Notes: generated by a model not told the origin, from the letters alone. Counted from the stretch's first letter, positions 11,404 through 13,703 are shown. The stretch is DNA of 64,000 nucleotides from an uncultured Chlamydiae bacterium (GCA_963713615.1 CAVQMM010000001.1:3296001-3360000); one strand, 5' to 3'. Translations and numbers: made by a program.

Positions 11404-11699
11404 CTCCAAAGCGCTGCGCGCCGAGATACGATTGTTAGGCTTAGGTTGAGGCCTATGGGGCGTCGCCCTGGTATATTCCAGGAAGGGATTTCGCAGTCTG
11501 AAAGACTGCCATAAGGCACTTGTATAAATAGCGTGTGAATACAGACGTCTTGTGGCAGTCTTTCAGACTGCGAAATCCCCCTTGGCATATACCAGGGCGA
11601 TGCCCTGGCCTGTTGCAACATCGACCCTTCTACCATAGGATTTTGCAAACGATTATCGACGGTAATAGGAAAAGACAAAAAACATTTCTCTAAGGTATC

Positions 11700-11850
11700 A
11701 TTTTGGCCGACGAAGGTGTGGCCGTGTGCCCTTAGCGAATGTTTGTTCGCCTGGCCCGATATGCCGCCTTCGTCGTTTGCATCATCCAATAATTCCGTTC
11801 GGGATGGTGCCAATCTTCTGATTGTGGCTCTGTAAGTAGAAGTGGAATTT
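11700..11850 (+). ncRNA. Putative IS110 bridge RNA (target-binding and donor-binding loops)
   Basis: Stem 11708-16/11767-75 encloses GCCCTT, a hairpin and GGCCCGA (target guides); stem 11791-96/11844-49 encloses CGGGATG, a hairpin and GTAGA (donor guides). Confidence 0.8.
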
Positions 11851-11893
11851 GGGTGAAATTTAACGCTCACAAACACTTAACAGGGCATTTATC

Positions 11894-13090
11894 ATGCAAA
11901 ATCAGTCCGAACTTCGTATTTGTCTAGATATCGGTAGCGTTCGACACTATGTAGCCATAGGCTTGTCCACAGGAGAACGCATCGATGGATTTTATCTAAA
12001 CCACACTTCTGAAGACATTGAGCAGTTTTTTGAGAAAATTGAGAAGCTTAGAATTTCCTATAACATGCCTGTTGTCATGGCTATGGAGGGGTTTAATGGC
12101 TATGCTAGACCCATCGATAGATATGCTCTTGATCACGGATATTCTTTGTATAGTGTCAACAACATGAAATTGGCTAGATTTAAGGAAGTTTTTCCTGGTC
12201 CAGCCAAAACAGATCCAATTGACGCTTGGGCTATTTTTAGCTTGTTTCAAGTTCAAGAGACCTTACCGTTGGCAAAAAATATTCTGCAGAAAGTAGAGCC
12301 TCCACCGGTATGCAACGAGCAACTTAAACATATTTCAAGGCGTCGTAGAGAGTTGGTAAAAGAAAAGACAAGAATCATAAATCGACTTCAAGGGGATCTA
12401 CAGGCTGTTTGCCCCGGTCTACTGTCTATTACAAAAAATCCAGCAAATCTTTGGTTTCTACGATTTCTTGCTTCGAAGGAAGACATGACCATGTTGCTTC
12501 GAATGCAAAAAAGAAGCCTGTTGCAAATCAAGGGCGTTGGAGAGGTTTATGCAGAGGAAATTCAGAAATGGCAAAAGACGGCTAAGTTCTCTTCAAAGGT
12601 TGAGTGGATAGGAAAATTAATAGTACGAGATGTCAGAAGGCTACTCGAGATGCTAGATGAAATAGCGCAGTTGGAGGTATTGATAGAGGGTTTGATCCCA
12701 CAATCCAAGATAGCATCTCGGATTGAATCTATTCCTGGATATGGTTCCATTTGTGCCGCAGAACTCGCTGGAGAGATTGGTAGTATCGATCGGTTTAAGT
12801 CGGAGGCTAGTCTAGCGCTCTACTTGGGAATAGGAATTCTGAACAAGAGTTCTGGCCAATATGAGGGGTCTCGATCGCCTCGAAATATTAACTGGAGGGG
12901 AAAGGGAGCTATGATGACCGGAGCTGCTCGACATATACAACTATGTGATGAGGCTGCACAGTACTACAAGAAGAAGAGAGCAGAGGGAAAAAAACATAAC
13001 CAAGCAGTACGAGCATTTGCCCGTCATATGATAAGAGTAATATGGTCGATACTCATACATGACAGGGATTACCGTCAGAAGGAAGACTGA
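11894..13090 (+). CDS. IS110-family DEDD recombinase/transposase
   Basis: CLDIG, AMEG, KTDPIDA, SIPGYG, FKSEASLALYLG, NKSSG, YYKKKRAEGKKHNQA. Confidence 0.95.
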   Translation: MQNQSELRICLDIGSVRHYVAIGLSTGERIDGFYLNHTSEDIEQFFEKIEKLRISYNMPVVMAMEGFNGYARPIDRYALDHGYSLYSVNNMKLARFKEVFPGPAKTDPIDAWAIFSLFQVQETLPLAKNILQKVEPPPVCNEQLKHISRRRRELVKEKTRIINRLQGDLQAVCPGLLSITKNPANLWFLRFLASKEDMTMLLRMQKRSLLQIKGVGEVYAEEIQKWQKTAKFSSKVEWIGKLIVRDVRRLLEMLDEIAQLEVLIEGLIPQSKIASRIESIPGYGSICAAELAGEIGSIDRFKSEASLALYLGIGILNKSSGQYEGSRSPRNINWRGKGAMMTGAARHIQLCDEAAQYYKKKRAEGKKHNQAVRAFARHMIRVIWSILIHDRDYRQKED

Positions 13091-13169
13091 GTTAGTTTAG
13101 CAAACGGGCTTTGTTCTGTTTGGCCTGAATGAACAAGGTCAGCAAATTCGGCGATGTTAGCTGAGCAGA

Positions 13170-13283
13170 AAAGGAGCACGGCTACTCTGCTTCGGCAACC
13201 CCATAGGAGTTGTATACAACCTTCCTAAGTAAATTCACCGTGTCCCTTCGCAGTTGAAAGGAGCACGGCTACTCTACTTCGGC
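13170..13283. repeat. 27-bp direct repeat pair in the IS110 right end
   Basis: AAAGGAGCACGGCTACTCT(G/A)CTTCGGC at 13170 and 13257. Confidence 0.85.
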
Positions 13284-13703
13284 TCTATAAATTTAGCAAA
13301 ATTAGAAAATAATTAAAAGTTTCAAAACCGAAGGAATTGGCATCGAAAAATCGCCTGAAAGCTACGAAAAATCTTGAAAAATTCTAGCGGGATGTCGGGC
13401 CTGGGAAGTGATATAAGCCTGTGTCTCCAGAACCCGATAGTGTCACGCCATTTGAGCTCTCCAGAATCGCCGTCTCGCAAAAAAAGTAACCTTTTTTCTA
13501 AGAATCGATCCTTAAAGACTCAAATAATTTTGCATTTACCCCCTTAGGTCTTTTGGTCCATCCAAGAGCGACCGCTCCCTGCATTTCTCAACAACCCAAG
13601 CGAACAGCAATCTTGGATTATTTTGTTAAATCCTCTAACATTGATTTTTTTAAAATGACAATAATTAGACATCATTATATAATTTAATTAAAAGGGGGTT
13701 ACT

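Follow-up and report, generated by a model that had tools for sequence, protein, structure and literature searches.

The window analysed here is a stretch of 64,000 nucleotides from the genome of an uncultured Chlamydiae bacterium (GCA_963713615.1, CAVQMM010000001.1:3296001-3360000), and positions are counted from its first letter. It carries an IS110 element of 1766 bp at 11631..13396 (+), a length that includes one TC core at the right end. The two TC dinucleotides, at 11629..11630 (+) on the left and 13395..13396 (+) on the right, were placed from the flanks of nine copies of the element found in the 3.97 Mb host genome. Seven of these copies are intact and two are interrupted; they are 99.9-100% identical and share identical ends. 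The boundaries and the 2-nt core are confirmed by a contig from sequencing run X3 that lacks exactly 1766 bp, with two letters shared at its empty-site joint, and both the copies and this contig agree with the TC-bounded interval proposed in a first-pass annotation of the window. All nine copies occupy a single TC site of a host repeat in a single orientation, and mapping them revealed none in an unrelated target. The flanks read GACCCT on the left and GGGCC on the right in 8/9 copies, and TGCCCT and GGGCT in the remaining one. Since the sequence common to the flanks extends over at most 190 nt, which is the repeat itself, the nine copies represent independent insertions.

As is typical of IS110 elements, the ends lack long terminal repeats, share a short core and lie in a specific target. 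They carry a short, imperfect sub-terminal inverted repeat (left arm 11637..11644, right arm 13378-13385, +; 7/8 match), and the ends of homologous elements carry a consensus that matches it. At 306 nt, the right end exceeds that of most homologs by about 280 nt; it contains a 27-nt direct repeat (13170-13196 and 13257-13283) that is confined to copies of the element. A G/A difference at 12805 divides the copies; two of the intact ones have A, and so does run X2. One of the interrupted copies holds a 2858-bp insertion with a 524-aa ORF and GTAA ends (G000:C1:1751221-1754078), which we take to be IS66-like, and the other a 3263-bp insertion with two ORFs (G000:C1:3548262-3551524), presumably IS21-like.

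The element encodes an IS110 recombinase of 398 aa (11894..13090, +) with a RuvC-like DEDD domain, formed by D12, E65, D107 and D110, and a C-terminal serine domain with S320, the combination that characterizes the family. Both Pfam domains, PF01548 and PF02371, score over their cut-offs, and the NCBIfam IS110 model NF033542 gives 173.7 bits against a cut-off of 140. Residues D12, E65, D110 and S320 are kept in 54/54 aligned homologs, and D107 in 53/54. An AlphaFold model of the protein (pLDDT 86.9) was compared by Foldseek with known structures, and the top 10 matches of this predicted model are all ISCro4 and IS621 (E 1.8e-11 to 1.8e-9), with TM scores of 0.73-0.75 by target length at 16-17% sequence identity; the modelled protein thus has the bridge-recombinase fold. 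A phmmer search of the PDB with the single protein gave no match at E 0.001, while a profile search recovered ISCro4, IS621 and a TIGR-Tas chain. In IS621, the backbone of Gly63 reads the second core base (PMC11208158). Asn68 of the present protein, found in 53/54 rows, aligns with this glycine, and the weakness of the HMMER domain alignment makes Asn68 a lead as a candidate core reader. Relatives at E 1e-20 or better number 2,516, the best at 52-64% identity. Close relatives were found neither in 60 related genomes, which gave four weak distant matches, nor in three genomes of the same genus by profile search, nor on plasmids at E 1e-30. Viral contigs likewise contained no close relative, with matches of 22-38% identity at most, and their 26 pattern matches included one usable scaffold, which had no transposase match.

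The host repeat interrupted by the element lies on either side of it, the left half with its palindromic stem at 11590..11628 (+) and the right half at 13397..13410 (+). Empty target sites, expected near four positions of the window, were found there as exact 13-mers at 214..226 (+), 9224..9236 (-), 58043..58055 (-) and 58238..58250 (+); the third is an arm of an inverted doublet that forms a long hairpin with the fourth. The genome contains 258 exact empty 13-mers against about 0.05 expected under a third-order Markov model, and of the 254 present on the main contig, 246 fall outside ORFs of at least 200 aa, which cover 75% of that contig. The repeat is composed of a palindrome and an end motif, often arranged as inverted doublets that fold into long hairpins, and 251 of the 258 guide-matching sites lie within it. 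It occurs in one of 40 related genomes, as two diverged copies. The element had been proposed to home to a dispersed palindrome, and this holds for the repeat as a whole, but the element inserts within the end motif, some 13 nt away from the palindromic stem. Two copies of the repeat, at G000:C1:3858587 and 3129376, have one T fewer and one T more, respectively, at the insertion point; such differences in T length may be slippage products or excision scars.

The repeat is linked to a Y1 transposase. An array of 14 repeat copies, 13 empty and one with the element, starts directly after the stop codon of a 150-aa ORF (G000:C1:3243391-3243840) that bears the Y---Q--HH signature of Y1 subclass 1.2. 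The palindrome flanks 11/12 close relatives of this Y1 protein (52-63% identity), compared with 2/17 distant relatives and 6/54 controls, and the end motif flanks 6/12, 0/17 and 0/54, respectively, both patterns having been set after viewing. The Y1 protein scores 57.6 with the IS200 model NF033573 (cut-off 55) and 22.4 with NF047646 (cut-off 80). As it passes the IS200 cut-off and fails that for RAYTs, and as the palindrome flanks its relatives, the earlier term "REP-like" is fair and "REP" is not: the tie to a Y1 transposase stands, but the canonical REP foot GT[AG]G, including GTAG, is absent from the repeat. Assignment to Y1 class 3 ends was considered and rejected; the repeat does contain a CCGA word, but neither it nor the Y motif agrees with those listed for class 3. 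Five further Y1 genes (G000:C1 1042783, 1466375, 1581528, 3256780 and 3873041) are each associated with their own type of flanking repeat, and the two long ones among them are flanked by GGGGTCAG-type ends.

Upstream of the recombinase gene, the left end of the element contains a putative bridge RNA with two guide loops, and the seven motifs that the first-pass annotation had listed at this locus all lie where it placed them. The predicted target-binding loop (11708..11775, +; z -5.05) has an outer stem with compensatory changes over 62 sequences, and the outer stem of the predicted donor-binding loop (11782..11857, +; z -3.40) also covaries. The proposal of two stem-loops thus stands for the loops folded apart, but the whole 270-nt end folds with a z of -2.6 and the donor loop is then placed elsewhere; in energy folding, parts of the guides pair with each other. 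In the consensus folding of 62 diverse sequences both stem-loops form, with a change on both sides in 22/35 pairs. In all homologs, a GU-GGC/GCC motif (11716-11722, 11826-11833) closes the outer stem in the target loop and the inner stem in the donor loop, so that one loop looks like a flipped version of the other. Rfam returned sub-threshold miRNA hairpin matches alone, on the flanking repeat.

The left target guide (11724..11733, +) ends at the first core base. It is where it had been placed, but against the repeat variant adjacent to the Y1 gene it extends further, with 9/10 bases identical, and the second core base is left unpaired; against the common variant it offers six matches and two wobbles of 10. 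The left guide may thus have been shaped on the Y1-linked form of the repeat. A preference of the element for the better-matching variant was considered and is not supported, 1/15 such sites being filled compared with 8 of about 262 common ones. The right target guide (11750-11759) and its handshake bases (11760-11762; together 11750..11762, +) form 9/13 pairs with the target before exchange, and 11 pairs plus one wobble of 13 with the right junction after exchange. In the donor loop, the left guide (11800..11808, +) shows seven matches with a mismatch at core base 1 and a wobble at core base 2, and the right guide (11836-11840) pairs with the donor and is followed by handshake bases (11841-11842; together 11836..11842, +) that pair with the left junction only. 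In both loops, the handshake positions therefore change from mismatch with the substrate to pairing with the product junction, as in the handshake model described for IS621 (PMC11208158). The four guide words occur in this order in 0/20,000 dinucleotide shuffles of the left end. With the guides in order, and a scaffold and core common to the homologs, the sequences uphold the IS621-type two-loop layout suggested earlier. A 5' segment of the RNA (11644..11652, +) is a 9-bp complement of the linker at 11773-11781. The duplex of segment and linker beats shuffles by more than 3 kcal in 84/114 homolog rows, and in many homologs the segment can also invade the target-loop stem, so that a possible RNA switch may be considered.

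The two ends of the element would, once joined in a circle, also form a promoter. The predicted -10 box TACCAT (11631..11636, +), 92-100% kept in homolog junctions, coincides with the right donor arm, and the predicted -35 box TTGAAA (13374..13379, +) lies 17 nt from it on the circle only. Consistently, TTG[AC] is found 17 nt from a TACCAT-type hexamer in 95/102 unique homolog junctions, the same spacing as here. No circle joint was detected in the contigs of 4 of 15 DNA runs, and contigs drop rare forms. Altogether, it is very likely that this IS110 element reaches the repeat by RNA-guided targeting with the predicted bridge RNA. The element would form a circle that joins the right-end -35 box to the left-end -10 box, and the junction promoter would drive an RNA of roughly 220 nt, of which one loop would pair with the repeat and the other with the joined ends of the element. 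Top-strand cleavage by the recombinase would follow directly 3' of TC, equivalent to that of IS621 at CT, and the handshake bases would draw the strands into position once exchanged.

Support for this mechanism comes from 160 homolog loci collected from genomes and metagenomes of many phyla, mostly at 45-58% identity. These loci share the same upstream RNA scaffold and the TC core. The TC core proposed for the element is therefore borne out in 9/9 copies, but as a property of the whole clade rather than of this element alone. Guides and flanks were compared in 124 well-anchored loci, the 36/160 loci without a well-anchored RNA being omitted, and for locus L167 a first right-end match proved false and was set aside. 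Positions -6 to -2 of the left guide match their own flanks above shuffles (p<=0.002; 102 unique pairs), as do positions +1 to +5 of the right guide (p<=0.002; 107 unique pairs), the shuffles in both cases ignoring relatedness. At positions -7, +6 and +7, no match above shuffles was seen in the 124 anchored loci. Register controls peak at offset 0 for the left guide (0.83 vs at most 0.58) and for the right guide (0.71 vs at most 0.30). The covariation of guide and target put forward as a check on the RNA is thus observed, with ten positions that track the flanks over about 100 homolog pairs, relatedness being ignored. On the donor side, guide position -5 follows the donor in 5/5 variant pairs, and left ends that read TATCAT come with a matching right donor guide in 9/9 rows, on at least three branches of a tree built from 110 non-redundant full-length rows. 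The handshake columns are nearly invariant among homologs, and several relatives sit in imperfect matches to their own guides. A TT core in the register of the relatives was rejected, the junctions that it predicts being absent. The supplement on IS621 contains no match to the scaffold motifs of the TC-core clade.

Most relatives are directed to another target. The left guide reads GGGGTC in 98/124 anchored rows, and most flanks read GGGG-TC-A. The ends of TIRYTs have the consensus GGGGWSAS (PMC3733652, PMC6006769), and the usual target of the clade fits this end motif. A Y1 gene lies nearby in 9/118 loci with long flanks; eight are of the long type, five of them starting 38-68 nt from the junction. 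Among these Y1 neighbours Pfam finds Y1 with DnaA_C in two, Y1 alone in two, and no match in three frames, and the suggested link between clade and TIRYTs rests mainly on the motif. Eight Acidobacterial relatives have re-aimed guides (L020, L021, L023, L043, L048, L049, L052 and L090), and in this branch 3/8 loci abut IS6-family transposase genes. In the tree, a long branch places the present element among relatives that target GGGG (support 99), so its own target is likely derived; the main contig offers 38 GGGGTC-type sites, and none is among the nine insertion sites. Comparison of the sequences shows that the target guides and both handshake pairs differ from those of the relatives in step with the different target.

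The element also departs from its relatives in the register of its left guides. The donor 6-mer and the core are one base apart in 135/136 homolog right ends, and the one exception, L094, is best read as a variant of the core. The present element lacks this base, a T, and has an additional A further upstream, which leaves the promoter spacer at 17 nt. Likewise, the TC that closes the left target guide lies eight bases into the loop in 120/127 homolog rows, while here the target loop has one more base and the guide stops at core base 1. Judged from the sequence, and compared with the relatives, the left target guide therefore stops one base sooner and the left donor guide one base further on, with the right guides in their usual register; the element alone among its relatives has both left guides shifted in opposite directions. 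If bottom-strand cuts followed the left guides, as in IS621, the element would make 2-nt loops, whereas if top strands alone move, this register swap costs nothing.

Several other explanations have to be weighed against RNA-guided targeting or alongside it. The site might be picked by the protein or by the hairpin of the repeat, the matches in the RNA being leftovers that have no targeting role; the target does adjoin a palindrome, itself often in long inverted doublets, but guides that track flanks at ten positions in about 100 homolog pairs argue for the RNA, as does the finding that relatives 52-64% identical to the protein belong to a clade with other targets, whose usual motif is left empty in this genome. 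It is very improbable that the protein or hairpin alone decides. A weaker form, compatible with RNA-guided targeting, holds that pairing is needed and is not enough, with a stem-loop of the repeat as a second requirement. The common variant is indeed matched by only a short left guide, one 6-bp hairpin overlaps the site and another hairpin lies nearby, and ISPpu10 provides a precedent for such a requirement (10.64898/2026.03.19.712850). However, many reconstructed homolog targets have no obvious hairpin by eye, and as nearly all guide-matching sites (251/258) are already in the repeat, the pattern can be explained without a second filter. We consider this additional requirement unlikely, though not negligible.

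Two further alternatives may be weighed. The one-base shifts of the left guides may be cosmetic, the loops bulging a base while the DNA is held as in the relatives and cutting is unchanged. In one relative, L125, the same loop is two bases longer on its 5' side, and the registers of the present element are read from sequence, not structure. On the other hand, pairing is poor at offsets -1, +1 and +2 and good only in the shifted register, and the donor spacing is fixed in 135/136 ends, and here the lost T is compensated by an additional A, so that the spacer stays at 17 nt. Cosmetic shifts are thus quite possible, and we lean modestly against them. The other alternative bears on the chemistry, not on the targeting: the element may be copied out and pasted in through its top strand alone, possibly involving a target-loop RNA that has been processed, and without a full Holliday junction. 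The sequence at all 18 junctions of the nine copies is the top-strand product, three alternative junction motifs were not found, and such a route was reported for CazIS110-1 (10.1101/2025.10.25.684509) and for IS621 (10.64898/2026.08.31.748434), but structures of IS621 show bottom-strand cutting (PMC11208158). Since top-strand repair would give the same junctions, genomes cannot decide the strand chemistry, and the question comes close to an even call, tilted slightly against the top-strand-only route.

The element described here belongs to the IS110 family, IS110 group, outside the CT-core IS621 clade. Like IS621 and ISCro4 (IS622), it has the same DEDD RuvC and serine domains and the same fold (PMC11208160, PMC11208158, 10.1101/2025.05.14.653916), a predicted left-end RNA with two guide loops, putative handshake bases, a predicted circle-junction promoter and a 2-nt core, and it inserts into a palindromic host repeat. 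It differs from them in its 16-17% identity and in its length, 398 aa compared with about 330. Unlike in IS621, where the second core base T is almost invariant, the core is TC throughout; the left guides end at swapped core positions, and Asn68 stands at the place of Gly63 in a weak alignment. ISPpu10 and ISPpu9 of Pseudomonas putida also occur in many copies in an intergenic repeat, often as inverted pairs, but ISPpu10 has a CT core (10.64898/2026.03.19.712850) and the repeat targeted here has no GTAG foot. In IS1111 elements, too, the target is set by a non-coding RNA, the seekRNA, as predicted here, and ISEc11 and ISXne4 illustrate natural re-direction between relatives (PMC11187229); unlike in IS1111, the predicted RNA lies upstream of the gene and not downstream, and the inverted repeats are about 8 bp (7/8) rather than 11-13 bp.

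The principle of RNA-guided IS110 insertion into host repeats is already known. What appears to be new, from the literature searched, is a TC-core clade with mostly GGGG-TC-A targets, and within it an element re-programmed to a Y1-linked palindromic repeat with shifted left guides. The clade has been catalogued before, two members without an ISfinder name being listed by Durrant et al. in the table of their tree (PMC11208160 supplement), and no description of it was found in the literature. The literature searched holds no TC-core IS110, no IS110 with any other non-CT core and none aimed at TIRYT or subclass-1.2 ends; ISfinder, figure contents (e.g., Durrant Extended Data Fig. 10) and some supplements were outside its scope, so a prior mention of TC cores is possible. 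In the literature searched, IS110 and TIRYTs are mentioned together only in the Y1 survey. The usual target of the clade fits the TIRYT end motif, and IS110s aimed there do not appear in the portions covered of the TIRYT paper (PMC3733652). The target repeat of the present element abuts a Y1 gene with the Y---Q--HH signature, and IS110s aimed at such sites are likewise absent from the portions covered of the account of TnpA-Y1 subclass 1.2 (PMC6006769), in which this subclass is described as generally without terminal structures, whereas 11/12 close relatives here are palindrome-flanked.

These observations can be joined in a broader picture, in which a large cross-phylum TC-core clade would live on the ends of other mobile elements, with TIRYTs as the default, IS6 in one Acidobacterial branch and the palindromes of subclass-1.2 Y1 genes in the present case, and in which the element would be a case of wholesale re-programming: both target guides and both handshake pairs changed, the left guides slipped in opposite directions, and the crossover unmoved. 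Taken as a whole, this picture is tentative, and we regard it as rather less probable than its failing in some part. If it is true, the crossover would be fixed by the top-strand guides alone, and the enzyme would be orthogonal to CT-core tools, with Asn68 replacing Gly63 as the core reader. The core dinucleotide limits bridge recombinases, and those studied require T as the second base. With a predicted RNA that is fully readable, over 100 natural pairs of guide and target and one member active in recent times, a TC-core clade may thus be a ready starting point for a wider target range or for two parallel editors. The register swap would offer a natural substrate to see if bottom-strand cutting follows the left guides, a matter on which current papers disagree. 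It also appears that IS110 guides are redirected in nature between families of mobile-element ends.

Two neighbours of the element may be mentioned as well. An IS1634-family element at 9527-11402 also homes to a repeat: BLAST finds seven copies, and 5/5 copies with exact ends lie in a second dispersed repeat family. Just downstream of the IS110 element, a ParE-family toxin gene (13920-14291, -) is probably part of a toxin-antitoxin pair.
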